Assembly: GCA_965205265.1 (NCBI GenBank)
Contig: CBDBGH010000003.1
Span: 4,896,001 to 4,960,000 of the forward strand
DNA length: 64,000 bases
Direction: 5' to 3'
Source of the DNA: Alphaproteobacteria bacterium
Lineage (GTDB): Bacteria > Pseudomonadota > Alphaproteobacteria > Bin95
Of this stretch, positions 971 through 59,643 are shown one piece after another. Numbering within the stretch: the first letter of the stretch is position 1; every line of letters starts with the position of its first letter. Both the position numbers and the translations under genes were made by a program. The notes beneath the pieces are model-generated. The model worked only from the letters and a program-made list of their open reading frames with translations, was not told where the DNA came from and searched no databases.

Positions 971-990
971 CAGAATTTGTAGCGGCTATC
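971..990. repeat. Orphan copy of the GATAGCCGCTACA element terminus
   Basis: cagaatttgtagcggctatc; last 13 bp identical to the termini at 57359 (inverted) and 60421. Confidence 0.6.
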
Positions 991-1682
991 TACAGGGACG
1001 GCCCGGCCATAGTGTCCCGCTCGACATCGTCTTCGACGGACCGCGGTTCGGCAATCTGCGTGCGGCGCACCTCCGCGCCCTCGAAACGCGCGCCGTCCGC
1101 CTGCCGGGACGTCACACGGCATCCTTCCACGATCCCGTTCTCGAACACCATCCCGTCGAGCCGCGCCGGCGGGGCCGCGGTGAAGTCCGTATCCAGGACA
1201 CTGGCCTCGCGGGCATCCATACCGCTCATCACCGCCCCGGCCGTCCGCAGCCGGGTCATGAACGCTCCACGGACGCTCGCCCCTGCCAGGAACGTGTCCT
1301 CGATGATCGCGCCCTCCAGGCGCGCCCAGGCCAGGTCCGCCTCCTGGGCGTCCGCACCCGTCAGGTCCGCACCGTTCAGGACAGCGCCGCACATCCGCAC
1401 GCCCTTCATCTTGGCCTCGCGGAAACTCGCCCCGGTGCAGTCGCACCCCGAGAAGTCCAGGCCTTCGAGATCCATGTTCGAAAAGTCGCCGCCCCGGAAG
1501 TCCGTCCGGCCTTCCTGCAATGCCGCCGCCAGCTTGTCCCGGCGCAGGGCCTCCGGACTCAAGTCCACACCGCTCAGATTCGCGGAACGAATGAACGCCA
1601 TCGTCTCGCCGTCGAGAACAGTCGGCGGGGTTCTCAGATCCACCCCATCCGGCGGCGAGCCATGCTCCTCAGGCTTTCTCAT
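990..1682 (-). CDS. Pentapeptide repeat protein
   Basis: A(D/N)Lxx repeats (ADLTG, ADLAW, ASFRE); acidic tail ending AGPSL. Confidence 0.85.
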   Translation of the reverse strand: MRKPEEHGSPPDGVDLRTPPTVLDGETMAFIRSANLSGVDLSPEALRRDKLAAALQEGRTDFRGGDFSNMDLEGLDFSGCDCTGASFREAKMKGVRMCGAVLNGADLTGADAQEADLAWARLEGAIIEDTFLAGASVRGAFMTRLRTAGAVMSGMDAREASVLDTDFTAAPPARLDGMVFENGIVEGCRVTSRQADGARFEGAEVRRTQIAEPRSVEDDVERDTMAGPSL

Positions 1683-1750
1683 CGGTAAACCGTCTCCCGG
1701 GTCCGCTTCCCGGGAAGCTTACGCCCGCCCCCTGAAACCGGCAAACGCCG

Positions 1751-2641
1751 CTACCCGCCGCCGGACGCCCAACGGGCCGGCCGGCGCGTAACCAGCAACT
1801 CGTCCACCCCGGCATGATGCGCGTTGCGCATCGTCACCCGGACCGCATGGAACCCGTGCCGGCAGACCAGACCCAGGATCTCGTCAGAAACGTCGTAGGT
1901 CATCAGGAAATCCGCCCTGCGGTCCGCGAGAAGCGCGAACAGCCGGGCATGGTCCACGTCGTTGCAGGCATACAGCCTCCGCCCGGCCCGCTTGCCGCCC
2001 CGGCCCGTATAGGGCGGGTCGACAAACACCGCCATCTCCTCCTCCTGCCGGTCCAGCTTCTCTTCAAGCACCGCCAGCCCGTCCGCCTCGCGGAACTCGA
2101 TGTGCCCTGCCGCCGCGGAGATCGCCTCTATCCGGCGGCACAGCGTCCCGGGATACCAGCGCGAGGCGACGCCCGCCCCGTTTTCGCCCTTCCGGACGAA
2201 GGACGCCCCGGGCGCCACAATGCCGCCCCGGCGCGTGCGGTTGAGCACCAGTGTCCGGAACCCCCGCCCGACAGTGTCGCGGGGCTCGGCCCGCGCCAGG
2301 TCCCGGACCGCCGTCATGCAGGGCTGGAACGCCCGCACGCGCTCACAGAGATCGGGGCCGTGATACAGCGCCGCCTTCCAGAAGGCCGCGATATCCGCAT
2401 CGCGCTCCACCATAAGCGTCCGGGGAGCCAGCCCTTCCATCACCGCGGCGAGCGATACCGTCGCCCCGCCGGCGAAGGGCTCGATCAGCAGCCGGTCCCG
2501 GCCAGCACCGAGCCATGCCCGCGCATGCGGAATGGCCCAGGTCTTGCCGCCCGGATAGCGCAGCGGGCTGCGCTGCGGGACACGGGACACATTCGCCGGC
2601 GGAATGCCGCAGGCCGGAATGATCGCCGCCTTCCCCGTCAC
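1751..2641 (-). CDS. Dam-like (D12 class) DNA adenine methyltransferase
   Basis: SPLRYPGGK, EPFAGG, VFVDPPY. Confidence 0.9.
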   Translation of the reverse strand: MTGKAAIIPACGIPPANVSRVPQRSPLRYPGGKTWAIPHARAWLGAGRDRLLIEPFAGGATVSLAAVMEGLAPRTLMVERDADIAAFWKAALYHGPDLCERVRAFQPCMTAVRDLARAEPRDTVGRGFRTLVLNRTRRGGIVAPGASFVRKGENGAGVASRWYPGTLCRRIEAISAAAGHIEFREADGLAVLEEKLDRQEEEMAVFVDPPYTGRGGKRAGRRLYACNDVDHARLFALLADRRADFLMTYDVSDEILGLVCRHGFHAVRVTMRNAHHAGVDELLVTRRPARWASGGG

Positions 2642-2961
2642 GGCGACGGGAGCGGCTCCTGCGGGCCTGCGACCCTTACACCGCTTGCCATGATCCCCGC
2701 CGCGCGCAGCTTGTCCCTGTCACCCGGCGTCATCAGCGCTCCATCGAGCTTTGAATCCCAACCAAACGGCGTCCGATGACCTGCATCGGCCCCACGAAGA
2801 TCCGCTCCCCTGAAATCCGTCTCCGAAAAGGCCGCATCGCGAAGCACCGCATCGCGCAGGTCGGCGGCACGGAACACCGTTCCGAACAGCCCGGCACCAT
2901 ACATGTTCGCACCGCGCAGGTCGGCACCGTCCAGGCAGGCCCGGTCCAACCCGGCGCAATC
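2638..2961 (-). pseudogene. 3' part of IS-interrupted pentapeptide repeat gene
   Basis: Joins 5358-4878 in frame (741 bp total) once the IS and one duplicated copy are removed; ends EPLPSP. Confidence 0.88.
2898..2961. repeat. 64-bp target-site duplication, left copy (right copy 4878-4941)
   Basis: catacatgttcgc...ccggcgcaatc identical on both sides of the IS. Confidence 0.95.
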
Positions 2962-4877
2962 CCTGACTTCGACGGTTGATTCGCATAAGTAGTTGATATT
3001 GCCTGGTTCTCATTTCGGCTAGGCACTACATCCGGCATTTCTTCGAGCCGTGCTTCGTCGACGGTCAGGCGAGTTGATACGGGGTGATCGTCAGGGGCAG
3101 CCCCATGGTTGCGTAAATCTGCTCCGCCGCCGGTGTCGGCTTCGAGGGGATGACGTAGCGGTTGCCCGATTGCCGACAGCGCAGCAGGGAGCACTGGCGG
3201 TGGACGAGGGCGGAGCGGATGACCTCCGGGGACATCCGCCGCTTCTGGATGGCGACGCGGTACGCAAGGTGTCGAACGCAGGCGAAGGCCAGGAAGGCGA
3301 TGGCGATGTGAGCGCGGATCCGGTCCGGGTTCCAGTGCCAGATGGGACGTATCTTCAGGTCGTGTTTGGTGATCCGGAAGCTCTCCTCGACCTGCCAGAG
3401 CCCCTGGTAGTGAGCCATCACTTCGGTGACGCGCGCGTCGCGCAGATTGGTGATGACGCCGGTGAGCCCGTCCCATCGTGCGGCCTCGGCGATCTTCTCC
3501 GGGTTCACCGTGAGCCGTGCGTCGCCCTCGACGGCGATGAAGCGCTTCGCCCCGTGATTGGAGAGCAGTTCCCTGGGATTGTCGCTGCGGGCCAGCCTGT
3601 CGAGCAGGCGTTCCACCTGATGGCGGCGCTCGTGCGCGTCCTTGCGTGCGCGCTGGGGGCAGAAGACGACGATCAGGCGACGGCCCTTGTACTCCCACTC
3701 GCCGACCCGGCGGTCCTGTGAGCCCTCCAGCGGGGCATAGGTCCCGGGGTCGAGAACCTGCCCCAGCAGCGCGAGCGGCAGCTTGCGCAGCCGCGCGCCG
3801 ACGACATACTCGCCGCCGATGGCGTCCATGGCGTCGAGGTTGTCGGCGCTCAGCATGCCCCGGTCGGCCACGCATACCGTGCGCTCCACCTGGTGGCGGC
3901 GCTGCATGTCCTGCAGGACCGGGACCATGCTGTGTCCCTCGTAGGTGGCGCCGGGGAAGACCTCGTAGCTGATCGGCAGCCCTTCGCGCGTCACCATCAG
4001 CGCCAGCAGAACCTGCGAGTCCTTGTGTTTGCCGTCCTTGCTGAAGCCGTGCTGGCGAAGCTCGTCCTCGGCGGCCGTCTCGAAGTAGAGCGTGGTGCAA
4101 TCGAAGAAGAGGATCGCGACCGGCTCCGGCAGCAGCGACCGGCTCGCCTCGCCGACGCGCGTGCGCAGTCGCTCGATCACCGTCGCGTCGAGCTGATCCA
4201 TCATCCGGTAGACCTTCTCGAGCGGAAGACTCACGCCGAAGTCCTCCTCGAGCCGGCGCACGCTGCCCCGCTTGCTGTCGGGGTTGGCTACCCGCGCCAT
4301 CACCACATGGAACAGCGCGTCATGGGAGGCCCGGTAGCGCGAGCGCGGCAGCAGCGCGTCGAGGCCCAGCAGCCGGTAGATCTCGCCATAGACCTCGTGG
4401 ATGCCTGTGATCAGGCGCTGCTCCTCTTCAAGCTGCTTGAGGTCGACCGGGAGTTCCTCCTTGCCGTCCCCCCGGCGGCCGACACGGATCGCCTGCTCAG
4501 CGATCTTCTCGGGCGCAAACAATGCCGGCTGACGCTCGTCCTCCAGCTTCGCCTTGACGTACTCGCCGAGCTGCCTCAGGCGCTCGAGCTCGTCCTCGTC
4601 CATGGCCACGCCGACATGGCGGACGATGCGCTGTCGGACCTTGCCGCCGTCGCGCACGGCCTCGACGATCTGGACCGAGCGTCGCGGGCTGTTGGGGGAG
4701 GTCTTGATGCGCACGAACATGGGGGGAGTGTAGCGCGTGGCGGAGGCATTGACAGTCTCAAAGATTTACTAGGCACTACAACGCAGCTTGACCGCACCGC
4801 AACTGCCAACTCATTGGCTTTACTGAAAACTCCAGACGCGAGATCGGTCAGAAGTCAGCCCAACCGTCGAAGTCAGG
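2962..4877 (-). mobile_element. IS1634-family IS, copy 1 (1916 bp)
   Basis: Perfect 17-bp TIR cctgacttcgacggttg / caaccgtcgaagtcagg; same length and transposase as copy at 60424. Confidence 0.95.
3065..4720 (-). CDS. IS1634-family DDE transposase
   Basis: FFDCTTLYFE, GFSKDGK, VADRG, LWQVEESFRITKHDL, IRAHIAIAFLA. Confidence 0.93.
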   Translation of the reverse strand: MFVRIKTSPNSPRRSVQIVEAVRDGGKVRQRIVRHVGVAMDEDELERLRQLGEYVKAKLEDERQPALFAPEKIAEQAIRVGRRGDGKEELPVDLKQLEEEQRLITGIHEVYGEIYRLLGLDALLPRSRYRASHDALFHVVMARVANPDSKRGSVRRLEEDFGVSLPLEKVYRMMDQLDATVIERLRTRVGEASRSLLPEPVAILFFDCTTLYFETAAEDELRQHGFSKDGKHKDSQVLLALMVTREGLPISYEVFPGATYEGHSMVPVLQDMQRRHQVERTVCVADRGMLSADNLDAMDAIGGEYVVGARLRKLPLALLGQVLDPGTYAPLEGSQDRRVGEWEYKGRRLIVVFCPQRARKDAHERRHQVERLLDRLARSDNPRELLSNHGAKRFIAVEGDARLTVNPEKIAEAARWDGLTGVITNLRDARVTEVMAHYQGLWQVEESFRITKHDLKIRPIWHWNPDRIRAHIAIAFLAFACVRHLAYRVAIQKRRMSPEVIRSALVHRQCSLLRCRQSGNRYVIPSKPTPAAEQIYATMGLPLTITPYQLA

Positions 4878-14838: not shown

Positions 14839-15825
14839 TCACGGCGAGGGCGATTCCTCCGGTTCCCCGAAGTTCCGGTCCGGTCTTCCGGCCAGCACCT
14901 CGTCGTAAACCGTCCCGACCACGATCGCCCGGAACAGGGCCCTTCGTTCCACCTGCCCCTTGTCAAGCGCCGCTCCGGTCATCACGGCATCCTCGAACAG
15001 CGCACCGTCCAGAACGGCCTCCTGAAGATTGGCACCCGAGAGATCGGCACTCCTGAAGACCGCGCGGTCCATCCGGGACTCAAAGAAATCCACGCCGGAA
15101 AGATCCGCCCCGGTGAAGTCGGCATGCCTGAGATCGGCCCCCTCTACCGTTGCCCCGGCCAATTGGGCACGGGCGAAAAGACCGAGCGCGATCACGCTGC
15201 CGCTCAGATCCGCCCCGGTCAAATCGCTGTTCGCGAATTTTGCCCGACGCAGTTTCTGCAACGACATGCTGTCGTCCGGGGCGATCCTGTCGATAGCGCC
15301 TTCGATCAGGCGGGCATTGCGCATCCACACGCCACGCATGACCGCTCCGGTGAAGTCGGCCCCGGAGGCCCAGCAATCCGTCAGGACCGCCCCGGTGAGA
15401 TCGGCCCCGTTGAACAGCGCATTGCACAGATTCGTTTCCCGCATGGCGGCACCGACCATGACCGCACGCTCGAACTTCCCGTCGGCCAGATTGGCATCCC
15501 TCATCTGCGCTCCGGTCAGGTTGGCTCCTGTCATCCGGCAATTCAGTCTGGCGTCCGTCAGGTCGGCCCGGATCAGCGTGGCCCCCGAAAAATCGGCGCC
15601 GCTGCAGGATGCCTGCCGGAGCTTCGCCCCGACCATCGCCGCCTCGCGGAACCAGGCGTGATCGAGGCGGGCGGCGCTGAAGTCCGTGCCGCGCAGCAGA
15701 CACCCGGAAAAATCCGCCCCGGTCAAGTCCGCCCCGCGAAAATCCATGCCCGACAGGTCGAGGTCGACGAAACGGCGCTCACCGTTGCGATACCGCCGGG
15801 TAATGTCGTCCCTGGTGATCGGCAT
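14839..15825 (-). CDS. Pentapeptide repeat protein
   Basis: MPITRDDI start with GGAGG; long ADLxG array; tail EPEESPSP. Confidence 0.9.
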   Translation of the reverse strand: MPITRDDITRRYRNGERRFVDLDLSGMDFRGADLTGADFSGCLLRGTDFSAARLDHAWFREAAMVGAKLRQASCSGADFSGATLIRADLTDARLNCRMTGANLTGAQMRDANLADGKFERAVMVGAAMRETNLCNALFNGADLTGAVLTDCWASGADFTGAVMRGVWMRNARLIEGAIDRIAPDDSMSLQKLRRAKFANSDLTGADLSGSVIALGLFARAQLAGATVEGADLRHADFTGADLSGVDFFESRMDRAVFRSADLSGANLQEAVLDGALFEDAVMTGAALDKGQVERRALFRAIVVGTVYDEVLAGRPDRNFGEPEESPSP

Positions 15826-15906
15826 GCCGGATCCTCCCTGCCGTGCCTTCGGGAAGACGGCCATCATCCGCCCTTGACGTGAAAACGCCAACGGCCGCGC
15901 ATCGGT

Positions 15907-17109: not shown

Positions 17110-18207
17110 TCACGAGGGGCCCGAAAACCCGGAATCCAGGTTCTCGGCCCCGGGCCCGCTCGACGGATCGTTGAATTGCGTCTCCAGAGCCTGGAGGCGA
17201 TCATTGATCCATTCGAAAGCCGGGGCGTCGCCAGCCATCATGCCCTGCATGCGCCTGTAGTCCCGTTCCATCGCGGAGCGCAGTTCCGGCTGCGGAACCA
17301 GCCGCAGCGAACCGGGCACCGCCTCCTCGATTTTCTTCCATCTCTGCCGGAAGGCCAGCAGGGTGTGCTCCCGGGCCCCCTTCCCCACATCCAGCCGCCC
17401 GGCAGCATCCTTCCCGATATCCGTGCCGGCGATCATCGCGGTATCGTAGTAGTGCCGCGATATGCGCTCGGCCGACGGAATGCGGCCTTCGTCCCTGTAG
17501 CCGCAGTGGAACCCGTGAAGGATGAGCAGCTTTTCCCAGAAAGCCCTTGCCGGATGGATCGTCACGATTCCCCCCACCTCGAGGGGCAGGTCCGGAATAT
17601 CCGCAGCAACGAACGGGTCGATGGCCGTTTCCACAGCCATGTCGAGGCCGCCGCGCGCGCCGCCCTCGATCTTCACCCGCGGCTGCACGTAGAACGGCCT
17701 TCCCTCACCGGCAAGGACACTTCGATAGCCGACCAGAAGGCTCTGCCCGGACTGGTCGGCTTCATCGACATGGATGGCGCTCTCCGCGCCGGCCGCGTCC
17801 AGCGCGGCTCCCAACTCCCGGCGAAGATCAATCTGGATATAGGCGCTGCACGAAGCCCGGAGTTCTTCAAAAAGCCTTGCCCGCTTCGTGTTGGACAGGC
17901 CGCTGTCCGGATTTGTCGGATCCCGGTCACCGGCGAACCCGAGCGCTTCGCGCGAGACGGTAATGTCCACGTCCTCGGAGAAGCGGTCTATGAGGCCGAA
18001 CGACTTGGAAAGGGCGGTGCCTCCCTTGAACAGAAATGCCGGGTGACCCTGCGGCAGGCCGTGATAAAGCGCGTCCAGCGTCATGCAGACCCAGAAATCC
18101 TGCTCGACATAGGCGGGGACGGTTCCGATCCGCTCGGCGGTCTCCGTGAAGAGAAGCCTCCGCTCGGCCTCACCCAAGGCAAGAAACCGGCCGAAAGACG
18201 GATTCAT
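17110..18207 (-). CDS. AbiEii/AbiGii-family nucleotidyltransferase toxin
   Basis: VEQDFWV, FKGGTALSK, RFSEDVD, WEKL, SRHYYD. Confidence 0.9.
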   Translation of the reverse strand: MNPSFGRFLALGEAERRLLFTETAERIGTVPAYVEQDFWVCMTLDALYHGLPQGHPAFLFKGGTALSKSFGLIDRFSEDVDITVSREALGFAGDRDPTNPDSGLSNTKRARLFEELRASCSAYIQIDLRRELGAALDAAGAESAIHVDEADQSGQSLLVGYRSVLAGEGRPFYVQPRVKIEGGARGGLDMAVETAIDPFVAADIPDLPLEVGGIVTIHPARAFWEKLLILHGFHCGYRDEGRIPSAERISRHYYDTAMIAGTDIGKDAAGRLDVGKGAREHTLLAFRQRWKKIEEAVPGSLRLVPQPELRSAMERDYRRMQGMMAGDAPAFEWINDRLQALETQFNDPSSGPGAENLDSGFSGPS

Positions 18208-21001: not shown

Positions 21002-21255
21002 GTCCGGCGCTCCTGTCCTGGCGTTCCCTGCGTCCCGGACGACCTGCCGCCCGGAGCGTGGCGCCAAGAATAATCGAGATCCCTGAAAAACGCGCTCCCG
21101 CATGCCACCCTCGAAAGGATGGCCGCCAGGGCCATTGCCGCCATCGCCGCCATCGCGACCCGGGATCCGGCCATGAATGGCAGCGCCCAGCCGATCTGCA
21201 CCGCCACAACTGCAGTGCAGGTTACGGACAGGAATCGGAGATGTTTCTCGAGCAC
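20998..21255 (-). CDS. Small membrane protein
   Basis: Two hydrophobic segments; first gene after promoter P2. Confidence 0.5.
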   Translation of the reverse strand: MLEKHLRFLSVTCTAVVAVQIGWALPFMAGSRVAMAAMAAMALAAILSRVACGSAFFRDLDYSWRHAPGGRSSGTQGTPGQERRT

Positions 21256-45099: not shown

Positions 45100-46221
45100 C
45101 TACGGGGTGATCGTCGCGAACCGCGGCGTTTCCCCTGCCATGCGCGTGGCATCGACCAGCAGTTGCCGGCTTGACACCTCAAGCTGCAGATAGGCGATGC
45201 GCGCGTGAAGCGCCTGGGTCTCATAGATGCGCTTCATGTAGTTTCTGGCGGTCATCGACGACTCCCGCTGGGCCGCTTCCTCCGGCTGCGGCTCGTGGTG
45301 ATAGGTCGTCAGCACGTCAAGGGCCTGCATTTCCGAGACCGCCCCTGCCGGCAGCGGCCGCAAATAGAGGCCCTTGTCGGCGAATTTCCTCATCGTCTTC
45401 CCGCTTCTGATCGCCATGCCGCCCGAGCCCGGCGACGTCGTCTGACCTTCGCGCAGACCGAGCACATAGGCCATGGCCTCGCGCACGATGCTGTGCCTGA
45501 CGCGGACCCCGTCCATCTCGCTGTCCAGAACCCTGTAGCCCGGGGCCGCTTTCAGCTCTTCGTTGAGTTCCGGCGGCTGCAACGGGTCGATGACGTTCTG
45601 GATGAGGGCTTCGGTACCCCGGTTGCGCTCCGGGCTGCGTTCGACCGTCGTCCCGTCCCACCAGTCCCTGAAGTCGGTCGTGGAAATCCCCTCGCCCTCC
45701 AATTCCTTGCGGAGTTCCTGACGCTCCACGGCATAGCGCACGCTTCCCTCGGTGCGCGCCGGCGTTTCCGGCGGCGGCTTGCGCGCCGACTCGCTGTTGC
45801 TTTCCAGTCCGGCCTCCGGCGCCCCGGTTCCCCCATAGCCGGCGCGCTCGAGCGTGAGGCAGCCGTTCGGGTCCGGGTCATACCGTCCCTCGGCTTTAGC
45901 GCTCGCACGGAACTCCTGTCTCAGACGCAGGGCCTCGTTCGTCTCCTGGGCGTCGGCGAGACGCTCCATCGCCTCGATCTGCAGTCTGTCATACTGGGAC
46001 AGCTGCGAGGTCTGCTGCCGGAGCGCCTCGACGATGGCCTCCGTCATTTCGTCGATCCAGCGCCTGACGTCCCTTCTGGTGTCGCCGTGCTCCGAACTGA
46101 CAAGACGGGTTATCCTGTAACAAATTCCGGAACATTTCGCCGCAGCGGCCTCCCGGACATCCCCGAAAATCACCAGAACCGCCATGGCGGCCACGGCAAA
46201 AACGAATGCCTTCCGTATCAT
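45100..46221 (-). CDS. Exported TraW/VirB5-like conjugation protein
   Basis: Signal peptide, helical body, DPNGC, IQNVIDP, SEMQAL. Confidence 0.5.
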   Translation of the reverse strand: MIRKAFVFAVAAMAVLVIFGDVREAAAAKCSGICYRITRLVSSEHGDTRRDVRRWIDEMTEAIVEALRQQTSQLSQYDRLQIEAMERLADAQETNEALRLRQEFRASAKAEGRYDPDPNGCLTLERAGYGGTGAPEAGLESNSESARKPPPETPARTEGSVRYAVERQELRKELEGEGISTTDFRDWWDGTTVERSPERNRGTEALIQNVIDPLQPPELNEELKAAPGYRVLDSEMDGVRVRHSIVREAMAYVLGLREGQTTSPGSGGMAIRSGKTMRKFADKGLYLRPLPAGAVSEMQALDVLTTYHHEPQPEEAAQRESSMTARNYMKRIYETQALHARIAYLQLEVSSRQLLVDATRMAGETPRFATITP

Positions 46222-46234
46222 CGCGCCGCTCCCG

Positions 46235-46828
46235 TCACCTGCCGCCGCCAAGCATCGAGTCCCAGGCTTCCCGACGCCTGTCGTTCAATTCCCTCTGGAC
46301 CCCGCCTGTCAGCGGCCGGAGGGCTTCATTGGCGCCGCGCCGGACCTCGTTGCCCACACGGGCATTCCTGGTCGCCCCCCTGACCACTGAGCCCGGCGAT
46401 GGCAGCCAGCTTGTCGGATCGAGCACGGACTGGAGGGAGCCGACCCCCCCGCTCAGGCTGGTGATCGGCGAGGTCACCTGCGCCCACTGCCGCTCGGCAA
46501 AATTGCAGACGGCCCGTCCCAGGCCCTCGACCCACCTGTCGAGCGCCGACAACGGGTCGATCAATATGCCCGAAAAGGTGTCGATATCGATGTCCAGAAG
46601 ATTGTCGAGACACCCCAGGTCGCCCACCGCCCGGGGAGGCTCGATCGCCTGCTCGGCGATTCTCACGCTGTTTTCCAGTTCCTGGCGGCTCCGTTCCGCA
46701 ACAATGCTCCGGCTCGCATCGTCGCAACCGGCCCGCGCCATGCGTTCCGACAGCCGGTCGGCCTGCGCCGGAACGGTCCCGGCAAACAGGAGTGCGAGAA
46801 CCAGAACGGACCACGTTTTCCTGTTCAT
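46235..46828 (-). CDS. Exported TraV-like conjugation protein
   Basis: Signal peptide; GC...GCLD...AVC; upstream of TraW-like gene. Confidence 0.45.
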   Translation of the reverse strand: MNRKTWSVLVLALLFAGTVPAQADRLSERMARAGCDDASRSIVAERSRQELENSVRIAEQAIEPPRAVGDLGCLDNLLDIDIDTFSGILIDPLSALDRWVEGLGRAVCNFAERQWAQVTSPITSLSGGVGSLQSVLDPTSWLPSPGSVVRGATRNARVGNEVRRGANEALRPLTGGVQRELNDRRREAWDSMLGGGR

Positions 46829-47328
46829 CGGCACTTTCTCCGCCTGTCCGAACACGCATGTCCAGCGTAGCACGGCCAGGGGTGCTCGCCGGTTCAGCCG
46901 ACGCAGCTTTATGGGGAAACTCGAATTCGCCCGACGCCCGCCTGTCAGGACCTCTCCTCCGGCCCCGGGGGCCTCCCGGTCCGATGTCGCTCTCCCGCAC
47001 CAGACCTCTTCCAGGATTCTCTCCGCCCGATCACCTGCTCATCCGGACACCCCGGCAGGTCTATAGGAATCCAGCCGTCACGGTCCTCCAATCCGGACGT
47101 ATCGTGGACATGCGCTGTCAACGCCCTCGCATATGACCGGCCGTCATGGCATGCTGGCCGTGTCGGCCTTGGCCGTCACGCTGTTTGTACATCGTCGGGC
47201 CAGAGGCTGGAGCGGGGGCGCCGTCGAGGCGTGATGCGTGATCCCTGCCGGCCGCCGCATGCGCATTCACCGCCTGGATTCGAGCGGTCCGCCAGTCCTT
47301 GCGCAACAAGAGGCTTGGGGAGCGGAGA

Positions 47329-47787: not shown

Positions 47788-48444
47788 ATGAACACCGACG
47801 ATCTGCTCGTCGCCTACAAGCAGGGCAGGCGCAATTTTCGCGGCATGCAGATCGAGCCCGGCGGCCTCCTTTTCGGCGAGTGTCTCGACGGCGCCGATTT
47901 CTCTGAATCCCGGCTGACCGGGGTCTCTTTCGATCACTGCGACCTCAACCGGACGAGTTTCCGCAACGCCGACATTTCCGGAACCGGCTTCAGTTGTTCC
48001 AGCCTTGTCGGAGCGGACATGACCGACGCCAGGGCCCGCGGCGCCGACATGTGGCAGGCCGACCTGACCCGGGCCTGCCTCGACGGCGCCGACTTCGGCC
48101 CGGAGCCGCAAGGCCTCGACGATCCAATGGACCGCGAAACACCTCCGTCGGCCTTCGGCTATGCGAGGCTGGTTCGCGCCAGCGCGCGGGGAACGCTGTT
48201 CGATGCGGCGCGCCTCGACGGCGCCGACCTGACCCATATGGACGCCACCGGCGCCAAATTCCGCCACACGGAGATGAAGGACGTCAATCTCATCGGCACC
48301 TGCATGCATGGCGCCGACCTTCAACATGCCCATCTGGCGGGGAACGTGAAGGTGGGCCTCGCCGGCACCCGGAACACCGATTTCCTCGACCCGGAGGAGC
48401 TTCCGGAAGATCTCCGGGAGCCTTCGATCCATCCCGACATCTAG
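47788..48444 (+). CDS. Pentapeptide repeat protein
   Basis: YKQGRRNF followed by repeats; acidic tail. Confidence 0.88.
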   Translation: MNTDDLLVAYKQGRRNFRGMQIEPGGLLFGECLDGADFSESRLTGVSFDHCDLNRTSFRNADISGTGFSCSSLVGADMTDARARGADMWQADLTRACLDGADFGPEPQGLDDPMDRETPPSAFGYARLVRASARGTLFDAARLDGADLTHMDATGAKFRHTEMKDVNLIGTCMHGADLQHAHLAGNVKVGLAGTRNTDFLDPEELPEDLREPSIHPDI

Positions 48445-51277: not shown

Positions 51278-52381
51278 CTACAGTCCCGGCTCGGGAACCG
51301 CGGACGCCTTTCCCCGCCGGGGGCCGGCCAGGGCCTGCCGGAACCACCGGTAAAGGTCTCGGTCTATCCTGGGAGAGGGATGCGCGGCTCCCGCATCGAC
51401 CAGATCGGACACGGTCCGTCCGCCACTGTCCGGCAGATCGCGGTCCGCGCCGTGTTCCAGGAGCGTCTGCACCACCTGGGGATGTCGGCGCCAGACTGCA
51501 TGGTGCAGGGCCGTCCAGCCTCTCTTGTCCTGCCTGTCCGGATCGGCCCCGGCCGCCAGCAGGTCCCGGACATCGTCCAGCACCGTTTCTCCCGAAGCCC
51601 CGATCACCCGCATGATCGCGGTCTGGCCGTCACTGTCCCCGATATCCGGATCGGCCCCGGCCTCGAGCAGGGCCCCCATTGCGCCGCTGTTTCCCCGGCA
51701 AGCGGCCTCGAGGAGGGCGGTCCGGCGCTCGAATCCTCCGGTTTCGTTGAGGTCCGCGCCGAATTCGATCAGATGACGGACCGTCCAGGCCTGTCCGGTC
51801 CGGTCCGTCTGCGCCGCCAGCATGAGAGCTGTCTTGCCTCTGCCGTTGATCGAAGGCGCCCTGGCCCCGGGATCGGCGCCTGCATCCAGAAGCATCTCCA
51901 CAACCAGTTCCCGACGGTCGGGACTGGACCGGCAGACAGCCTGATGGAGGGCGGTCTCTCCCCGGCCCCGCGCCGCATCGGGTCTGGCGCCGGCGTCGAT
52001 CAGCACCTGAACGACCTCCGGCTCGTTTCCGCGCGCCGCCAGGCGTAACGGCGTGCTCCCCTGTTCGCCGACGGCCTCGACATCCGCCCCGGCCTCGATC
52101 AGGGCCACGGAGATGGCGGCCTCGTCGTTACCTTCCGCCGCCAGATGCAGGGGCGTCTGGCTCAGGACCGTCCTCGCCGCCACGGATGCGCCGGCTTCGA
52201 GCAGAATGCCGATAACCGCGCTGTCGCTGGCTGCAGCCGCCGCCAGGTGCAACGGCGTTCGTCCGAGATGGTCCGCGGCCTTGGGGTCGGCGCCGGCGGC
52301 CAGCGCCTGCCGGACCTTCTCCGGCGAGGCATTGGCAAAGAACCCTTTCGTGCCCCATGTAGCGTCAGACATCTCACTCAC
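51278..52381 (-). CDS. Ankyrin repeat protein
   Basis: Repeated G.TPLH.AA...LL.AGAD; tail PEPGL. Confidence 0.92.
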   Translation of the reverse strand: MSEMSDATWGTKGFFANASPEKVRQALAAGADPKAADHLGRTPLHLAAAAASDSAVIGILLEAGASVAARTVLSQTPLHLAAEGNDEAAISVALIEAGADVEAVGEQGSTPLRLAARGNEPEVVQVLIDAGARPDAARGRGETALHQAVCRSSPDRRELVVEMLLDAGADPGARAPSINGRGKTALMLAAQTDRTGQAWTVRHLIEFGADLNETGGFERRTALLEAACRGNSGAMGALLEAGADPDIGDSDGQTAIMRVIGASGETVLDDVRDLLAAGADPDRQDKRGWTALHHAVWRRHPQVVQTLLEHGADRDLPDSGGRTVSDLVDAGAAHPSPRIDRDLYRWFRQALAGPRRGKASAVPEPGL

Positions 52382-52467: not shown

Positions 52468-53139
52468 TCACGGCTGGCTCCCCTGCGGTGCGGCCGCCGG
52501 ATCGCCTGCTGTCTGCTCCGGGTCTCCGGTGCGAATGGCCTCCGGCCACAGCTTGACGAGCCTCCGGTTGCGCTCTTCCGTCGAATACCCGTAGCCGCAG
52601 TCCTCAAGGCCGGCACCCACGCCATATCCCGACCAGCCGGCCCAGACCGTGCCATCCGGCTGCGCCAGGCGCGCATAGATGTAGAGGTTATCCTCCTCGA
52701 CCCACAGCACTTCGAGGCGGCTGCCGTCCGGGAAGGCAAAGGCCGCGACCTCACGGTCCACGTTGCCTTCCGCCCAATCCACCGGATTGAGCGCAGGTGC
52801 GATGGGCTTTCCCTCGGAATTCTCCCGCGCTATCAGCGCCTCTGGAAGATCCACCCCATGGGACAGGAGGTCGATCTCCCGCCCGTCAAGCCAAGCCGTT
52901 ACCGCGTAGCTCTTGTAGAGCCCGACATGGAGACGGCCGTCGCCAAGCACGACATGTCCGTTCGGACTCTCGTTCCTGAGCTTGTAGCCTTCCTCCGCTC
53001 CGATCCCCTGGGCGGCGAATGCAAACCCCGGATACGTTCCGGGGACCGTAAAGGCCCGATCGGTGAGAACGGCATCGCTGCGGTCCACGATACGCCTGCC
53101 GTTGCGAAAGGCGTATCCACCATAGTCCGAATATGCCAT
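52468..53139 (-). CDS. Hypothetical protein
   Basis: GGAGG RBS; MAYSDYGGYAF; SGYGVGAG. Confidence 0.7.
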   Translation of the reverse strand: MAYSDYGGYAFRNGRRIVDRSDAVLTDRAFTVPGTYPGFAFAAQGIGAEEGYKLRNESPNGHVVLGDGRLHVGLYKSYAVTAWLDGREIDLLSHGVDLPEALIARENSEGKPIAPALNPVDWAEGNVDREVAAFAFPDGSRLEVLWVEEDNLYIYARLAQPDGTVWAGWSGYGVGAGLEDCGYGYSTEERNRRLVKLWPEAIRTGDPEQTAGDPAAAPQGSQP

Positions 53140-55006: not shown

Positions 55007-55054
55007 AGCCTGCCGGATCATGGAATGACAGGGCACAGCGGGGCCGGGCGCCGC

Positions 55055-55318: not shown

Positions 55319-55387
55319 CGCCAACCTTCTCCTCGGTATCTCTCCGCTTGGCGGCTGTCCGCAGGGCCAGCGACACATCGGCCCCGG

Positions 55388-56233
55388 TCAAGGCGAAAAA
55401 CCGACCTCCTCCATCGCCGGCATGCCGGCGCCGTAGTCCTCGATCACCGACACCACCTCCCTGTGATACCCGTCCAGGGCGGGCTCCAGGGCGTTCAGCA
55501 CGACGGCCGCATCCACGCCCGGAAGAACGGAAGACCTTTCCAGAACCTTCGGACCGCCCGGGTCCTGAAGGTCCCTCATCGTCAGCGTCCATCCCTTCTC
55601 CTGCGTGTCGAGAGTCCATATCTCGGCCACGCCCAGGCGGCTGCACATATCCCGCACCTTGGCCGCATCGTGGGAAGCGTCGCTGCGTTCCACCTCAACG
55701 ACCAGATCCGGCGGCACACGCCTTTCGAACGCCTCGATCCCCGCCCCACCGGTTTCCCTGGACAGGCGCCTGACATTGTCGCCGACATAATATGAGAGCG
55801 GCGGCACCAGCGCGCTGTGTTCCGGGGCGTCGGGGAAGGCCATCTCCTGCCGGAAGCGGCGCGCCAGCCAAAAGGCGGACTCCTGCCGCCCCAGCATCGA
55901 GAATATGAGATCCAGCCCCGTCCTGATTCTATCGTGGCGAGCAGACGGAAAGCGCATCTCCACCCAGCCCTCCGTCGTGTCGATCAGGACGTTGCCATCG
56001 GCAAGAATCCCGCCTGCCCTCGCGTTGAACGCACCCAGGTTGCCCGAGTGCAGCATCCCTTCGCGCCGCAAATCCTCCGGCGTCAGCCGGCCCGATGGCG
56101 CCTCCCTTCCGGCAAGCCGGTAGAGAAGGTCGAAATCGTTTTCGCGAATGCGTTCCAGAAGAACACCGGCCATGTCCGGTCCGACACAGACACGGACAAA
56201 TTCGGACCCCGACGTCCCCGTCGTCCTTTGCAC
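55388..56233 (-). CDS. Uma2-family PD-(D/E)XK protein
   Basis: PSARHD, PPDLVVEV, LGVAEIW, RSSVLPG; tail EEVGFSP. Confidence 0.75.
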   Translation of the reverse strand: MQRTTGTSGSEFVRVCVGPDMAGVLLERIRENDFDLLYRLAGREAPSGRLTPEDLRREGMLHSGNLGAFNARAGGILADGNVLIDTTEGWVEMRFPSARHDRIRTGLDLIFSMLGRQESAFWLARRFRQEMAFPDAPEHSALVPPLSYYVGDNVRRLSRETGGAGIEAFERRVPPDLVVEVERSDASHDAAKVRDMCSRLGVAEIWTLDTQEKGWTLTMRDLQDPGGPKVLERSSVLPGVDAAVVLNALEPALDGYHREVVSVIEDYGAGMPAMEEVGFSP

Positions 56234-56316
56234 CGCCTCCTCCTTCCCGGAGAACCGTGCCTCATCGTTCGGATGATCGGCCCGCCTCTCTCCCAAAGTG
56301 TCTTTCGCAGCCCCCG

Positions 56317-57210
56317 CTACGGTTGCGGACCGTCCTCGCCGGGCCCGGCGATTGCCGGCCGGACCGCCGCGGGAGTCTCGATATAGCGTTCGTCCCTGAA
56401 CTCCTCGACGCCGCGCCGGAAATGCACCTCCATGCCTTCCGCAGTAATGCGCAGGGTTCCGGATCCGCCGAGATCGTTCCACCAGCCGGGGAACCTGGCC
56501 TGAAGCAAATTCCAGGCAACATGCCGGATCAGCGCGCCGAAGGTCTCCGGATCCCGCTCCGTCACGACCCAGTCGTCACGACCCTCGTCCCAGCGAACAC
56601 CCCGCAGCCCGGCGCATTGCGCATTCAGGTTGCCGCCCGGAAGAAGCCTTACCGCCTGAACAGCTCCATCGTCCGATTCACCGGCAACCTCGATCTCGAT
56701 CGCCTGGACGGCGTCCAGGGCCATCCTCTCCATGACCACTCCGAGATTGTGGCGGGCAGCGAGGTCGACCGCGGTCCGCCAGCGCTCCTCGCTTCGTTCC
56801 TGTTCCCGGTCGTAGGCCTCGCGCTCTGCATCGGGAGGCTCGCGCAGCCAGTTTTCCCACGCCGGCCCGGTTCCCTCCAGGCCGAAGAGGAACGACGAAA
56901 CGTACATGTTCTGCGGCCAGAACTCGACCGCCGCCGGACCTCCGTTCCCACCCGCCGCCGGGTCGGCCTGGGCGACAACCCGGAACTCGTTGTTGCTCTC
57001 CTTGTCGGCGGACACCAGAGCCCCGCCGTCATCGAGGGCCATCTCATACTCCGCCATCTCCGCTAAGGTCAGGGCGGGCCCGGGCTTGATAGCCCGCACG
57101 AGCGCGCTGACACCAGCCCCGTCCGGGGCGCCGGCCAGGTTGTAAACCTCGCCGTCCTCGACCAGGAACACGGATCCCAGATCGTCCTCGTAAATCCGCC
57201 TCATCGCCAT
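56317..57210 (-). CDS. Hypothetical protein, DUF6878-like C-terminal half
   Basis: AGESDDG, PGWWNDLGGSG; tail GEDGPQP. Confidence 0.65.
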   Translation of the reverse strand: MAMRRIYEDDLGSVFLVEDGEVYNLAGAPDGAGVSALVRAIKPGPALTLAEMAEYEMALDDGGALVSADKESNNEFRVVAQADPAAGGNGGPAAVEFWPQNMYVSSFLFGLEGTGPAWENWLREPPDAEREAYDREQERSEERWRTAVDLAARHNLGVVMERMALDAVQAIEIEVAGESDDGAVQAVRLLPGGNLNAQCAGLRGVRWDEGRDDWVVTERDPETFGALIRHVAWNLLQARFPGWWNDLGGSGTLRITAEGMEVHFRRGVEEFRDERYIETPAAVRPAIAGPGEDGPQP

Positions 57211-57299
57211 GGCAGGAAAACTCCCGTCTGACCGTCCCGTCAGGGGCATACTGCGCGATATCCGTGAAAACCCCCAACCGACGGAACCGCCTCTGCCAT

Positions 57300-57360
57300 A
57301 AGCCTCTTCTTCAATGATGTGGTGGAAGCCGCAATGACCGATGGGCCATTCCTTCAATGA
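57300..57360 (-). repeat. CRISPR-repeat-like cluster B
   Basis: Two TCATTGAAG; shares GTCATTGCGG and AAGAGGCTT with cluster A. Confidence 0.4.
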
Positions 57361-57975
57361 TAGCCGCTACAGATATTGTGGCATAATATATCGTTACTTA
57401 TTGATATTACGCTGAAATATCACTGCAATAAATCGACATCGATTTTCCGGCGAATTGTGGCGAACCGCTCAAGCTCTCCCCATAGACCAGTGTGTTTATT
57501 GAATAAAGTCTGAGATCTGGCTTTGCGCGCTGGACAGCGGGGTTCCGACCACCGCATCGGGAACCAGGCTCTGGACGAAAGGGCGCCTCCGGGTGAAGGT
57601 CGACGGCAACCGCGAGGCGCCCGGCTGAGAGGAGGCGGCGGAGCGGCGTGGAGAAGCCAGCGCTGTGGACGCCGGAAGACGGACAGCTGATCGGGCCGCA
57701 AGCGTCGGCCGCAGCCGAGTCCGCGACGAGCGGCGCGGGCAAATCATGAGGGCGTCGCGACCTGGACACTCGGCACCGCCAGCAAGCGCATTCGGGACAC
57801 GAGCGGCTGCAAGCCGGTGCGGCAGCGCCTGCCCCTCCCGGCGCGACGGCGGCTCAGGGAGGGATTCTGCGGTTGACCGCCGCCAGAACGCCTGAACCTC
57901 CCTTCAGCAATGAGAGGGGATCGGATTTTCTGGCGGAGATTGCCGACGGGCCCGTCCGTTCCGGCTCTCGAAGGG

Positions 57976-59643
57976 TTACGACGGGCCGGGGAGGTCCGTG
58001 TCCAGCGGTGTCGGCGGCGTCCAACCGCGCCCGGACTCCTTGCGGTCCTCTTCCCGCGGTGGAGCGGTCTCCAGGCCCATGGCCCGGGCCATGGCCGGGA
58101 TGTCCAGACACCCGAAGCCTTCGCCAGCATAACGCCGCTCCTCTTCGTCCGAGAAGGCGGGCGAGATGAGCAACTGGCGGCGCGGCAGGTCGGCCAGATG
58201 CGCCTTGCTCGTGCCCCGAATGTCGTGCAGGAACGCTTGAAAGTCCTCTTTCAGCTTGTCGCACTTGTGCCGGCTGGCATTGCGTTTGCAGCCGGCCATG
58301 GTGAGCAGGGGAGGGTCGCCGTCGTCCACGACAAGGACGTCGATATCGGGAAGGTTCCCGCGCCCCGGGCGCCACGCGCCAGAGGCGGCGTATTCTGTCT
58401 CAGGGCGGGTCCGGAACCAGTCGGCTGCGAACCGTTCGAGCGCGAACCCCTCAAGGGTATGCAGATGACTGAGGGCCCGGTCTATGTCGACGGTAGCCCT
58501 GCCGGCCGCTTCATTGTCGTCCGTCGGCTCTCCACCGAACAACTCGGGGAATACCCCGAGCTGGAAGAGCGCGCTGTTATCCCTCAGGCCCCATCTCACC
58601 CGGCTCCGATTGTCGGCGGCCGGGAAGGCCGTCTGCGGGGTAACCATCTCCAGATGGTCGCGCAGCCGGCCCATGACCGCTTCCAGCGGCTCAGGGGCTT
58701 CCCCCTTCGCGTCCGGGACCCAATTCCGCAACACTTCTGGAAATTCCCGCAGCCGTTCGCCGCGTCCGCCGCGTCCGGCCAGCCACAGAATGGCCCGCCG
58801 GGCCCGGTCGGCCAACTCGACATAGGCCTTGCTGTCGAAGCGCTCGCGCGGGTCTTCCTGAAGAATCCGGCACTCGCTCTCGATAAAGGCGCGCCGCCAG
58901 ACGTCGTCATCAGGCCAGGCTTCGAAATCCCTCAACGCCTCGAATTCGTCATCCATGGTGAACCGTTCCCAAGGGCGCGGCAGGCCATCCCAGGCCGTCC
59001 AGAGCGTGAGGAACCGACCCGGATGGCGCAGGAATCCCTGGTCCGAGGCCATTTCGAGCACGGTCTCGACCGGCCAAGGCCTTACCTGGACGCCCGGATT
59101 GCTTCTGCCATGGAGTGGCTGGTCCACCCGAAACATGTGCAGCATTTGCTGCTGGTGCGACCCCATCAGCACCAGCTTGCCGGACGGAGGCTCGCCCTTC
59201 ATGCGCCGGATCTCGTCGATTATGTATTTGATCGATGGCACGATGCCGGCCGGCGCGGCATGGTGGAACTCGTCGAGCGCCACGATCGCGCCCTTCATCA
59301 GCAGCTGCCTGACGATGTCCGTGAAGCGAAATCCGGGGCTGTAGGAACCGTCCAGACGCGGCATGTCCTCCAGCAGCGGCGACAGACCATCATACTGCAC
59401 CTGGTCGGCCAGGGCCTCTAGGCACGCGGCCGCATCGCCAGAGGGAAGCTCCACATGCAGAAAGGGAATCGCGGGGTCGCGGTCGTGGCATACCTCGTGC
59501 AGCAGGCGGGTCTTGCCGACCCCGCGCCGACCCAGAATCGTATAAGTGCCGAACCGGCGCCGACGCCGGTTCGGATCGAGACCCAGACGAAGCGCCAGAT
59601 CGCGAGACTCGTTCGCCCGCCCGTAGAAACCCCAATGAACCAT
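57976..59643 (-). CDS. ATPase_2-like ATPase with C-terminal PD-(D/E)XK (DUF234-like) domain
   Basis: FYGR..E, GRRGVGKT, LDEF, MGS, DIDV..GCK. Confidence 0.82.
   Translation of the reverse strand: MVHWGFYGRANESRDLALRLGLDPNRRRRRFGTYTILGRRGVGKTRLLHEVCHDRDPAIPFLHVELPSGDAAACLEALADQVQYDGLSPLLEDMPRLDGSYSPGFRFTDIVRQLLMKGAIVALDEFHHAAPAGIVPSIKYIIDEIRRMKGEPPSGKLVLMGSHQQQMLHMFRVDQPLHGRSNPGVQVRPWPVETVLEMASDQGFLRHPGRFLTLWTAWDGLPRPWERFTMDDEFEALRDFEAWPDDDVWRRAFIESECRILQEDPRERFDSKAYVELADRARRAILWLAGRGGRGERLREFPEVLRNWVPDAKGEAPEPLEAVMGRLRDHLEMVTPQTAFPAADNRSRVRWGLRDNSALFQLGVFPELFGGEPTDDNEAAGRATVDIDRALSHLHTLEGFALERFAADWFRTRPETEYAASGAWRPGRGNLPDIDVLVVDDGDPPLLTMAGCKRNASRHKCDKLKEDFQAFLHDIRGTSKAHLADLPRRQLLISPAFSDEEERRYAGEGFGCLDIPAMARAMGLETAPPREEDRKESGRGWTPPTPLDTDLPGPS

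Follow-up and report, generated by a model that had tools for sequence, protein, structure and literature searches.

An acidic, proline-ended C-terminal tail as a candidate type IVB export tag on giant alphaproteobacterial elements

Introduction

How the coupling proteins of type IV secretion systems recognize their substrates is poorly defined, and the signals known so far are heterogeneous, loosely defined, and difficult to predict. A 64-kb stretch of chromosome C3 of an alphaproteobacterium (GCA_965205265.1; positions 4896001-4960000, 4.896-4.960 Mb; hereafter the window) raises this question directly, as it encodes homologues of DotL and DotM together with a set of unrelated proteins that end in short acidic, proline-rich tails. 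A sequence-only reading of the window took these tails for a substrate tag of a plasmid-borne, Dot/Icm-like type IVB secretion system (T4BSS). Are the tails a tag, how far does it extend, and what might it address? We find that the tag exists, is positional and appended, and avoids proteins with hydrophobic segments, the identified parts of the T4BSS apparatus, and insertion sequence (IS) proteins; a T4BSS is nearly the sole gene set shared by the three replicons on which we describe it. Sequence comparison suggests that it is probably a clade-specific T4BSS export tag on the soluble cargo of giant alphaproteobacterial elements.

Results

Acidic, proline-ended tails in the window

The genome (5.70 Mb, 68% GC) comprises C3, a 5.46 Mb chromosome, and the plasmids C1 and C2 of 193 kb and 43 kb. 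Genes were called with a codon log-odds model trained on long open reading frames (ORFs) of high GC3 from the same genome, keeping non-overlapping ORFs; the result was 5190 genes, with a coding density of 86% on C3. Trained on its own genome, this caller is weaker at lower GC. Because a C-terminus is set by frame and stop codon alone, errors in start codons leave the tail results untouched. We defined a strict tail as proline in the last three residues, at least two Asp or Glu in the last 15, and no Lys or Arg in the last six, and PxP$ as Pro-x-Pro at the very C-terminus. High-confidence genes have a score of at least 40 and encode at least 120 residues, and a hydrophobic segment is a 19-residue stretch with a Kyte-Doolittle mean of at least 1.6.

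All 12 C-terminal strings that first drew attention to the window are present, each directly followed by a stop codon, and 11 of them belong to genes chosen by the caller, the exception being GPQEPLPSP (2641-2667, minus strand). Pfam agrees with the names given to the proteins: pentapeptide repeats, AbiEii, Doc, ankyrin, Uma2, and AAA ATPase. These proteins, and one further protein with a strict tail, are as follows in window coordinates:

990..1643, minus strand: pentapeptide-repeat protein, 217 residues, tail ...EDDVERDTMAGPSL (Pfam Pentapeptide, E 6.9e-20)
2638..2949, minus strand: candidate gene from the ORF list, small, 103 residues, end ...GPQEPLPSP
14839..15867, minus strand: pentapeptide-repeat protein, 342 residues, tail ...GEPEESPSP (Pentapeptide, E 5e-54)
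17110..18207, minus strand: AbiEii nucleotidyltransferase toxin, 365 residues, extra 17-residue tail ...PSSGPGAENLDSGFSGPS (Pfam; homologue alignment)
21222..23564, minus strand: N6 DNA methylase-domain protein, 780 residues, strict tail ...SRNISDSCP (Pfam)
23569..24072, minus strand: Doc/Fic toxin, 167 residues, ~35-residue extension ending ...EEDESMSALPEPGF (Pfam)
34715..35257, minus strand: protein of no known family, 180 residues, two genes upstream of dotM, tail ...NADYDGADYSP
47788..48444, plus strand: pentapeptide-repeat protein, 218 residues, tail ...EELPEDLREPSIHPDI (Pfam)
51278..52381, minus strand: ankyrin-repeat protein, 367 residues, one of 23 paralogues in the element described below, end ...SAVPEPGL
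52468..53139, minus strand: protein of no known family, 223 residues, tail ...DPAAAPQGSQP
55388..56173, minus strand: Uma2-family nuclease-like protein, 261 residues, tail ...PAMEEVGFSP
56317..57210, minus strand: DUF6878-like family member, 297 residues, one of 27 paralogues, tail ...AGPGEDGPQP
57976..59643, minus strand: AAA_16 ATPase, 555 residues, tail ...PLDTDLPGPS (Pfam)

The tail is missing from the proteins said to lack it, namely the IS transposase (...PYQLA), the SDR (...VLEEER), the phosphoesterase (...DLVVEI), and the channel (...ASLERG). Proline occurs in the last three residues of 23/62 window genes and 1115/5128 in the rest of the genome (21.7%; odds ratio 2.1, p 0.0045), and strict tails in 10/62 and 383/5128 (p 0.017). 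These counts are matched or exceeded by 8-11% of all 62-gene windows of the chromosome, so the window alone is only modestly unusual. We also looked for a DNA feature common to the stops (a repeat, an attC-like site, or a terminator hairpin) in the 36 nucleotides before and 70 nucleotides after every window stop; none emerged, and the idea was dropped.

The plainest alternative is that the tails have no function and are a by-product of GC-rich sequence, of stop codons drifting into GC-rich spacers, of paralogy, or of gene-calling errors. The 21.7% background favors it, as do three large paralogous families that inflate raw counts and a home-made gene caller. Accordingly, the caution first attached to the tails, that high GC inflates proline by chance, is fair for the window at 68% GC; it does not hold for the surrounding element, where the excess is far over same-GC controls.

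The tail is a property of a giant integrated element

The window does not lie on a plasmid, as had been supposed; it sits inside a giant element of ~0.56 Mb integrated in C3 and marked by a block of low codon score at C3 ~4.75-5.32 Mb. In a sliding 62-gene scan, all top windows fell within 4.79-5.3 Mb, with a maximum of 35/62 genes having proline in the last three residues. In 100-kb bins this share was 40-50% inside the tail-rich region against ~20% elsewhere, and the codon score was lower there too. Taking the element as C3 4.762-5.320 Mb (556 genes) for tail counts, we obtained:

Element: strict tails 141/556, PxP$ 53/556
Rest of the chromosome (control): strict tails 238/4398, PxP$ 23/4398
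Two plasmids (control): strict tails 12/208, PxP$ 2/208
Low-codon-score chromosomal genes (control): strict tails 39/894, PxP$ 5/894

Against ORFs of matched GC, the excess in the last residues thus stands, at ~25% strict tails in the element and 4-6% in same-GC controls. Restricting the comparison to high-confidence genes gave 105/364 against 199/3540 for strict tails and 38/364 against 19/3540 for PxP$. Collapsing paralogues left the excess in place, with 76/360 sequence families of the element majority-tailed and a family-weighted rate of 19.8% against 5.7%. Both the same-GC controls and the family-collapsed counts speak against a by-product of composition or paralogy.

The enrichment is tied to position. 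Proline stands at 21-23% at -1 and -3 against a 7% background (~3-fold), Gly and Ser are raised at -2 and -4, and Asp and Glu at -5 to -11, together reaching 18-22% at -5 to -8 against 13%; Lys, Val, Ile, Phe, and Tyr are depleted. The enrichment is limited to the last ~12 residues and gone by about -13, and the composition of protein bodies is unchanged. Mean net charge over the last 15 residues is -0.68 against +0.13. Tails are acid-rich with 3.4% Arg, whereas in-frame read-through past the same stops is Arg-rich (14.9%) and acid-poor (~3% each of Asp and Glu), which again argues against a functionless by-product of the DNA. That comparison is partly circular, because the strict definition demands acids; the unselected position-specific test is not. 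A bias in stop codons was considered and rejected, as the TGA, TAG, and TAA fractions are equal in tailed genes, untailed genes, and the rest of the genome.

The 27-member DUF6878-like family has tails that differ in sequence and are of one style (...GPQP, ...SPGP, ...QPGL, ...APSP, ...SPSP). The best explanation of these patterns is a disordered, appended C-terminal tag made of an acidic, Lys- and Arg-free stretch of ~8-12 residues followed by PxP (PSP, PEP, PAP, PGP, PQP) or by PGL or PGF.

Tails are additions to known domains

Alignments of DUF6878-like, AbiEii, and Doc homologues bear out the claim that soluble proteins of unrelated kinds have had tails added to them. In Gemmobacter and in an uncultured Rhodobacter (163 residues), DUF6878 homologues stop at the last conserved aromatic residue of the domain, and every aligned paralogue in the element runs 12-20 residues beyond the domain end. 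Among AbiEii homologues, 102/119 align only to query residue 346 and end at most two residues later, and the window protein is 17 residues longer; 6/119 have tail-like ends, which is the background rate. For Doc, the ~35-residue extension is confined to the nearest subclade: it is present in the 13 closest relatives (149-182 residues), of which 8 are tailed and one comes from a sister-element contig. Of the 119 homologues in all, 106 fall outside this group, and the 104 of them that were listed have a median length of 130 residues, with five tail-like ends. When species-representative genomes were scanned for this tailed subclade, all matches were ordinary Doc toxins that align up to about residue 130-135.

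The tag marks soluble proteins of many kinds

Large tagged families of the element comprise pentapeptide repeats (a 47-member cluster), ankyrin repeats (23), DUF6878-like proteins (27), and Uma2 (6 paralogues, 6/6 tailed). Also tagged are AbiEii, Doc, SNase, RNase_T, Thg1, CSD, HTH_3, Macro plus NADAR, GPP34, and two nucleotidyltransferase families, as well as SocA/Panacea, DUF2958, DUF3085, DUF7007, RecQ, and a 1754-residue UvrD plus DEAD helicase. The tailed GPP34 (Golgi phosphoprotein 3) domain protein (E 7.6e-44) lies at L026:8169-8828, C3 ~5.286 Mb; the family is known mainly from eukaryotes.

Untagged are the T4BSS parts identified, IS transposases and their helpers, the type I-G Cas proteins, and a Cas9-like protein. 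Of the second copies of housekeeping proteins that we checked, almost all are untagged too (DnaA, RpoD, ParE, NrdJ, ThyX, RecJ, ClpS, RF2, dGTPase). Housekeeping-type copies with tails are DnaB, DciA, RecQ, and CSD, and the chromosomal paralogues of DnaB and CSD end similarly. Proteins with a hydrophobic segment are tailed in 11/120 cases in the element against 142/447 for soluble ones (odds ratio 0.22, p 1e-7), and the same avoidance is found in Paracoccus (11/87 against 89/318) and Gemmobacter (7/95 against 86/295), whose replicons are described below.

The element encodes a type IVB secretion system

Pfam and NCBIfam identify, at 4.76-4.79 Mb, DotH, DotI, a VirB4-like ATPase of 1022 residues, DotD, DotC/TraI, DotB, and IcmT; DotA, DotM, and TrbC/DotL lie within the window, and type IVb pilus genes are also present in the element. 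The VirB4-like match is weak (E 7e-9), and the protein is 43-47% identical to proteins of sister T4BSS replicons. Neither DotG nor DotF was identified by name among the T4BSS genes in these two databases. By gene content, the predicted T4BSS is largely complete. The DotL/TrbC-type coupling protein and the DotM homologue noticed at the outset were both confirmed, and the T4BSS features of the window are:

28915..32406, minus strand: T4BSS coupling protein, TrbC/DotL-like, 1163 residues, untailed (Pfam TraG-D_C; NCBIfam TrbC_conju, E 8e-106)
32484..34259, minus strand: DotM/IcmP homologue, 591 residues, untailed (Pfam DotM_C, E 4e-29; NCBIfam DotM_IcmP_IVB; PDB DotM chains, E ~1e-20)
34261-34638: 125-residue gene between dotM and the tailed 180-residue gene
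37183..39660, minus strand: DotA/TraY, 825 residues, untailed (NCBIfam DotA_TraY, E 2.7e-76)
39671..40941, minus strand: two TcpQ-domain proteins, 138 and 260 residues, T4BSS-linked, untailed (Pfam; homologues in sister T4BSS loci)
43987-44991, plus strand: gene amid the T4BSS cluster, on the opposite strand, with a weak ATP-grasp (D-Ala-D-Ala ligase C-terminal) match (E 7.6e-4 Pfam; 7e-7 NCBIfam)
45100..46855, minus strand: two T4BSS-linked genes, 373 and 206 residues, no known family (homologues in all sister T4BSS loci); the 373-residue protein ends ...RFATITP, outside the tail definition

The tailed 180-residue protein upstream of dotM has no Pfam or NCBIfam match, and an Atlas search gave no usable one. 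In the sister loci of 54% identity, a 175-residue gene occupies the same place two genes upstream of dotM and ends in the same style with a different sequence (...GPEEDDAPSL); tblastn gave no match linking the two. Instead of being cargo, the 180-residue protein could serve the coupling complex as a dedicated partner.

The genome holds a single dotM. Among 37 genomes of the order, DotM occurs in the source genome only (1/37), which marks the element as foreign to the lineage, and a class-level sample yielded 28/401 genomes at ~30% identity over the C-terminal domain only, a tally that includes the source genome and one unpublished genome. For related loci, a search with DotM alone gave none and an alignment-based scan succeeded.

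A search for four relaxase families (PF03432, PF03389, PF08751, PF07514) found none in the element. Genome-wide, PF03432 and PF07514 had no match, PF03389 occurred on plasmids C1 and C2 only, and PF08751 (TrwC) occurred nine times, always outside the element, on C3 at 0.37, 2.38, 2.56, 3.26, 3.42, 3.79, 4.36, 4.73, and 5.44 Mb. The nine TrwC-type genes imply many integrative and conjugative elements (ICEs) with type IVA secretion systems (T4ASS) on one chromosome. Seven of the nine relaxases end in a common ...MDLGL or ...GGGM-type motif (...GGMDLGL-type), unrelated to the tag.

The tag co-occurs with a T4BSS on three replicons

Two other replicons, from Paracoccus and Gemmobacter, likewise encode TrbC/DotL (54% identical to ours) and DotM, and both are tagged:

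Paracoccus sp. ME4 plasmid NZ_CP151277.1, first 400 kb: DotM ~36%; strict tails 97/405, PxP$ 34; own chromosome 17/401, PxP$ 2 (strict, p 1e-16)
Gemmobacter caeni NZ_QBKP01000002.1, 40-440 kb: DotM ~34%; strict tails 91/390, PxP$ 31; same-genome control 5/179, PxP$ 3

Both repeat the proline peaks at -1 and -3, the Asp/Glu peak at -5 to -8, and the PSP, PEP, PAP, PGP, PGL, and PGF ends; in one 20-kb stretch of Gemmobacter, 22/30 genes are tailed. Homologues in both replicons exist for only 35/567 element proteins. T4BSS parts account for ~20 of the 35, and among the rest are two helicases (Sno-like and UvrD-like), TopoIII, a Toprim protein, RecJ, an RNase_T exonuclease, and a YqaJ-like protein. 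This YqaJ-like protein has a tail on each of the two Rhodobacterales replicons, and in the element one of its two paralogues does. The cargo sets appear to differ almost completely: DNA mimics, ankyrins, nucleases, and toxins here, and helicases, NUDIX, SIR2, and Tmk-type enzymes in Paracoccus, where 78/97 tagged proteins have no Pfam family and the others are UvrD, PIF1, SNF2, RecJ, YqaJ, MYG1, NUDIX, SIR2, Tmk, Grx, and so on. Within 20 kb of the nine TrwC relaxases of the source genome, 17/279 genes are tailed; the figure for the T4BSS element is 153/567 (p 2e-14). The tag is present on all three replicons, whose common content is little more than a T4BSS, and is not enriched on the nine T4ASS ICEs, which links it to the T4BSS.

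More distant systems at first seemed to lack the tag, on the strength of ~20 kb around each of seven distant T4BSS loci (2/106 genes tailed, 0-2 per locus). That conclusion was overturned by the 400-kb samples, with 23-24% tailed; the ~20-kb samples misled because the neighborhood of the apparatus is poor in cargo. A Paracoccaceae contig from a metagenome-assembled genome (MAG; DotM 26%) had 6/102 strict tails and no PxP$ (control 3/64), gene calling being weaker at its GC, and a gammaproteobacterial MAG contig (DotM 27%, 51% GC) had 3/94 and one PxP$ by long-ORF calling, likewise weaker at its GC.

A DUF6878-like profile with the tail trimmed off found 1946 relatives, of which the best 150 comprise 20 from the source genome and 130 others; 15 of these 130 are tailed, concentrated in the top ranks. 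ENA contigs of 188,107 and 302,850 bp carry four tailed relatives, and a Doc relative ending ...GGPSPSFS is found on the latter too. Matching contig size and source suggest that these tailed relatives share contigs with the DotM sisters P0002 (60%) and P0001 (72%).

With these data the case for a functionless by-product becomes very improbable, and we regard it as strongly disfavored: the same tails occur on Pfam-confirmed proteins and on independently predicted database proteins, and the pattern repeats in two other genomes on cargo that is largely non-homologous.

The shared backbone raises another possibility, which we think unlikely, namely that the tag tethers soluble proteins to a hub inside the carrier cell, such as a conserved DNA-processing backbone protein or a replication or partition focus, and that the proteins act there. 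The acidic C-terminal tail of SSB (the protein that binds single-stranded DNA), which recruits many partners, provides an analogy. Many of the tagged proteins work on DNA or on nucleotides (helicases, nucleases, RecQ, methylases, Tmk, RecJ, YqaJ), the two helicases, TopoIII, and the Toprim protein are common to the three tailed replicons, and residues of DotM do not discriminate between tail-positive and tail-negative sequences. However, T4BSS parts make up ~20 of the 35 shared backbone proteins, the tag also occurs on ankyrin, pentapeptide, GPP34, toxin, and regulator proteins, and we identified no candidate hub having a domain that binds C-terminal peptides. The architecture of the tag, moreover, agrees with T4BSS signals as outlined in print (PMC2701608).

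Other features of the window and the carrier element

The remaining window features of note are:

3065..4720, minus strand: IS transposase DDE_Tnp_1, 551 residues, untagged; a second copy at 60581-62236 (plus strand) has the same length, score, and ends
18204-18812: AbiEi antitoxin gene, next to AbiEii
24069-24287: MazE-like antitoxin gene near Doc
24394..26238, minus strand: DnaG-type primase, 614 residues, untailed, end ...DPEERAAG (Pfam, NCBIfam)

The DDE_Tnp_1 transposase has ~10 full-length copies in the element (a 12-member cluster), none tailed. Two IS21-type elements are dispersed across the element in 7-11 copies.

The carrier is itself unusual, packing 31 tRNAs, a transfer-messenger RNA (tmRNA), release factor 2 (RF2), DnaA, DnaB, RpoD, NrdJ, and two CRISPR-Cas systems into ~0.56 Mb. 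Its second copies of housekeeping proteins are 34-91% identical to the chromosomal ones: DnaA 40%, RpoD 61%, DnaB 44%, ParE 78%, NrdJ 74%, RecJ 76%, ClpS 91%, and dGTPase 80%, with further copies of DciA, ThyX, RecQ, RNase HI, and PyrE. The tRNA genes form a 28-gene array (C3 5,094,894-5,101,696) plus three at further sites and cover all 20 amino acids; 54 typed tRNA genes lie outside the element. A second, two-piece tmRNA (C3 5,292,698-5,293,015) encodes the tag ANDNQEFALAAA, the chromosomal one ANDNEVALAA. The second RF2 (C3 5,228,146-5,229,081) is 71% identical to the chromosomal protein, and a short upstream frame (...GDSL-stop) gives the arrangement of a programmed +1 frameshift.

The RF2 and tmRNA copies bring up a further explanation, in which the tail sets protein level, either as a cap against C-terminus-directed proteolysis or as a termination throttle tuned by the element's own RF2 and tmRNA. 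The retained frameshift site and the different tmRNA tag suit this idea, and PMC7246954 describes bacterial C-termini as normally enriched in Lys and Arg and peptide release as inefficient after terminal Pro or Gly, so that ends of this kind carry a cost or an effect. A termination effect, however, needs the last one or two residues; it leaves the 12-20 residue acidic stretch, the proline at -3, and the avoidance of membrane proteins unexplained, and stop-codon usage does not separate tailed from untailed genes. We judge it improbable, more so than an intracellular hub. That the tag opposes the Lys/Arg bias and accepts slow release at terminal Pro or Gly argues for selection (PMC7246954), and slow release may explain why the element has its own RF2.

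Further observations concern the element as such. Type I-G cas3/cas8/cas7/cas5-6 genes lie at L014:243-6997 (C3 ~5.046-5.053 Mb), and a short Cas9-like gene (780 residues) has type II cas1/cas2 ~40 kb away (L016:35-2374, L018:1981-3283). A group II intron reverse transcriptase/maturase lies at L001:9349-10863 (C3 ~4.81 Mb) and a Slam-type surface-lipoprotein assembly modulator at L009:5364-6635 (C3 ~4.961 Mb). A Rep3-type plasmid initiator (Rep_3 C-terminal WH2 domain; L020:13859-15061, C3 ~5.175 Mb) fits a plasmid origin with later integration.

Discussion

We propose that the acidic, PxP-ended tail would address soluble cargo to the element's own type IVB (Dot/Icm-like, I-type) system. The likely reader would be the DotL/DotM coupling complex at the inner membrane, and the tagged proteins would be exported into a target cell. 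Targets could be other bacteria during conjugation, which fits nucleases, helicases, DNA-mimic-like pentapeptide proteins, and Macro, SIR2, and NUDIX domains, or a eukaryotic host, which fits the 23 ankyrin proteins and the GPP34 domain of the element. In its broadest form, the proposal is that one universal appended label (acidic stretch plus PxP-COOH) sends ~100-150 unrelated proteins per ~0.45-0.56 Mb element, integrated or megaplasmid, through DotL/DotM; we give this version an even chance. Of the sequence-only reading, the appended tails, the presence of DotL and DotM, and, by comparison across replicons, the link to a T4BSS have held up, and the plasmid location has not.

Published work supplies the frame for this proposal. 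Dot/Icm signals are outlined as C-terminal, with a hydrophobic residue or proline at -3 or -4, tiny or polar residues, and Asp/Glu enrichment (PMC2701608), and DotM binds acidic C-terminal peptides, its co-evolution with effector tails being proposed by the authors (PMC5802825). As the sequence-only reading had it, the tail agrees with this outline (PMC2701608, PMC5802825), sharing with Dot/Icm-type signals the C-terminal position, the acidic low-charge block, proline at -3 with Gly or Ser, and co-encoded DotL and DotM. In the literature that we searched, which takes in a minority of subscription journals, we found no account of the tag, nor of a T4BSS on Rhodobacterales replicons.

Several observations weigh against this proposal. 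Proline at -1 does not appear in the published Dot/Icm signal descriptions that we consulted. The residues with which DotM binds acidic peptides in the solved system do not tell tail-positive from tail-negative systems: the equivalent of R314 is invariant in 8/8 sequences, tail-negative ones included, and that of R315 is Arg in only 3/6 tail-positive ones. Proteins that are implausible as cargo have tails, among them one Paracoccus DotH and the DnaB whose chromosomal paralogue ends similarly; such cases set a false-positive floor of ~5%. A few other backbone genes common to all three replicons (Sno-like helicase, UvrD-like helicase, TopoIII, Toprim protein, RecJ) co-occur with the tag as well, and co-occurrence does not tell them apart from the T4BSS. 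With no relaxase of the four families found in the element, a conjugative context and co-delivery with DNA are conjectural. Finally, export of tagged proteins and their binding by DotM or DotL are predictions from sequence comparison.

On DotM itself, the R314/R315 patch aligned and the N-terminal basic patches (R196/R197 and R217 in the solved protein) did not. An 'RR' pair that we had taken as conserved was dropped when a wider alignment showed no discrimination between tail-positive and tail-negative sequences. A few basic positions are confined to the tail-positive set and carry little weight, as there are only two negative sequences.

If export is confirmed, no type IV secretion system would be known to have a sharper consensus signal, and no conjugation-type machine a larger protein payload. 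A tag readable from sequence would allow a substrate repertoire to be listed, and would provide a minimal peptide for structural and binding work on DotL/DotM and a portable export tag for engineering. It would also offer a way to ask whether giant conjugative elements ship a protein starter kit of anti-defense, DNA-processing, and host-manipulating functions with or instead of DNA. Two carriers, Paracoccus sp. ME4 and Gemmobacter caeni DSM 21823, are non-pathogenic and in culture.

Comparison with known systems

The carrier, as distinct from the tag, resembles the tRNA-array ICEs and giant plasmids of Acidithiobacillus and Mycobacterium, which are outlined as large mobile elements with arrays of more than 20 tRNAs (PMC4758250, PMC5966550, PMC12803027). 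To these the present element adds a tmRNA, RF2, DnaA, DnaB, RpoD, NrdJ, two CRISPR-Cas systems, and a T4BSS core.

T4ASS signals, such as those of Agrobacterium VirB/D4 and the Bartonella BID plus tail, are likewise C-terminal, unstructured, and charge-based (PMC11288057). Their charge, however, is positive, opposite to that of the tag, and around the nine T4ASS ICEs of this genome tagged genes are not enriched (17/279).

I-type plasmids transfer a primase protein during conjugation. The F-plasmid 'conjutome' extends the likeness to delivery, by a conjugation-type machine, of many plasmid and host proteins that aid establishment or counter stress (PMC11288057; see also PMC8406263). Signals in the F system are heterogeneous (positively charged, hydrophobic, or internal), with no common tag (PMC11288057), whereas here one acidic tag marks ~100-150 proteins per element.

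The closest likeness is to the Legionella/Coxiella Dot/Icm signal (E-block), which in outline sits at the extreme C-terminus of unrelated soluble proteins, is defined by composition, and has Asp/Glu ~5-17 residues from the end (PMC2701608). There, a DotL/DotM/DotN coupling complex reads the signal (PMC5802825), and homologues of DotL and DotM are encoded here. We noted no IcmS or IcmW among the proteins scanned, a scan that covered part of the small proteins, and DotM is ~30% identical over its C-terminal domain to class-level relatives. The tag described here is shorter and much sharper than the Dot/Icm signal, with proline at -1 and -3, Lys and Arg excluded, and a visibly appended character. 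It is carried by ~25% of the genes of a mobile element rather than by a chromosomal effector set, and its hosts are free-living-type Alphaproteobacteria. On the export reading, it would be a sharply defined new form of the known C-terminal T4BSS signals, borne by a class of giant elements.

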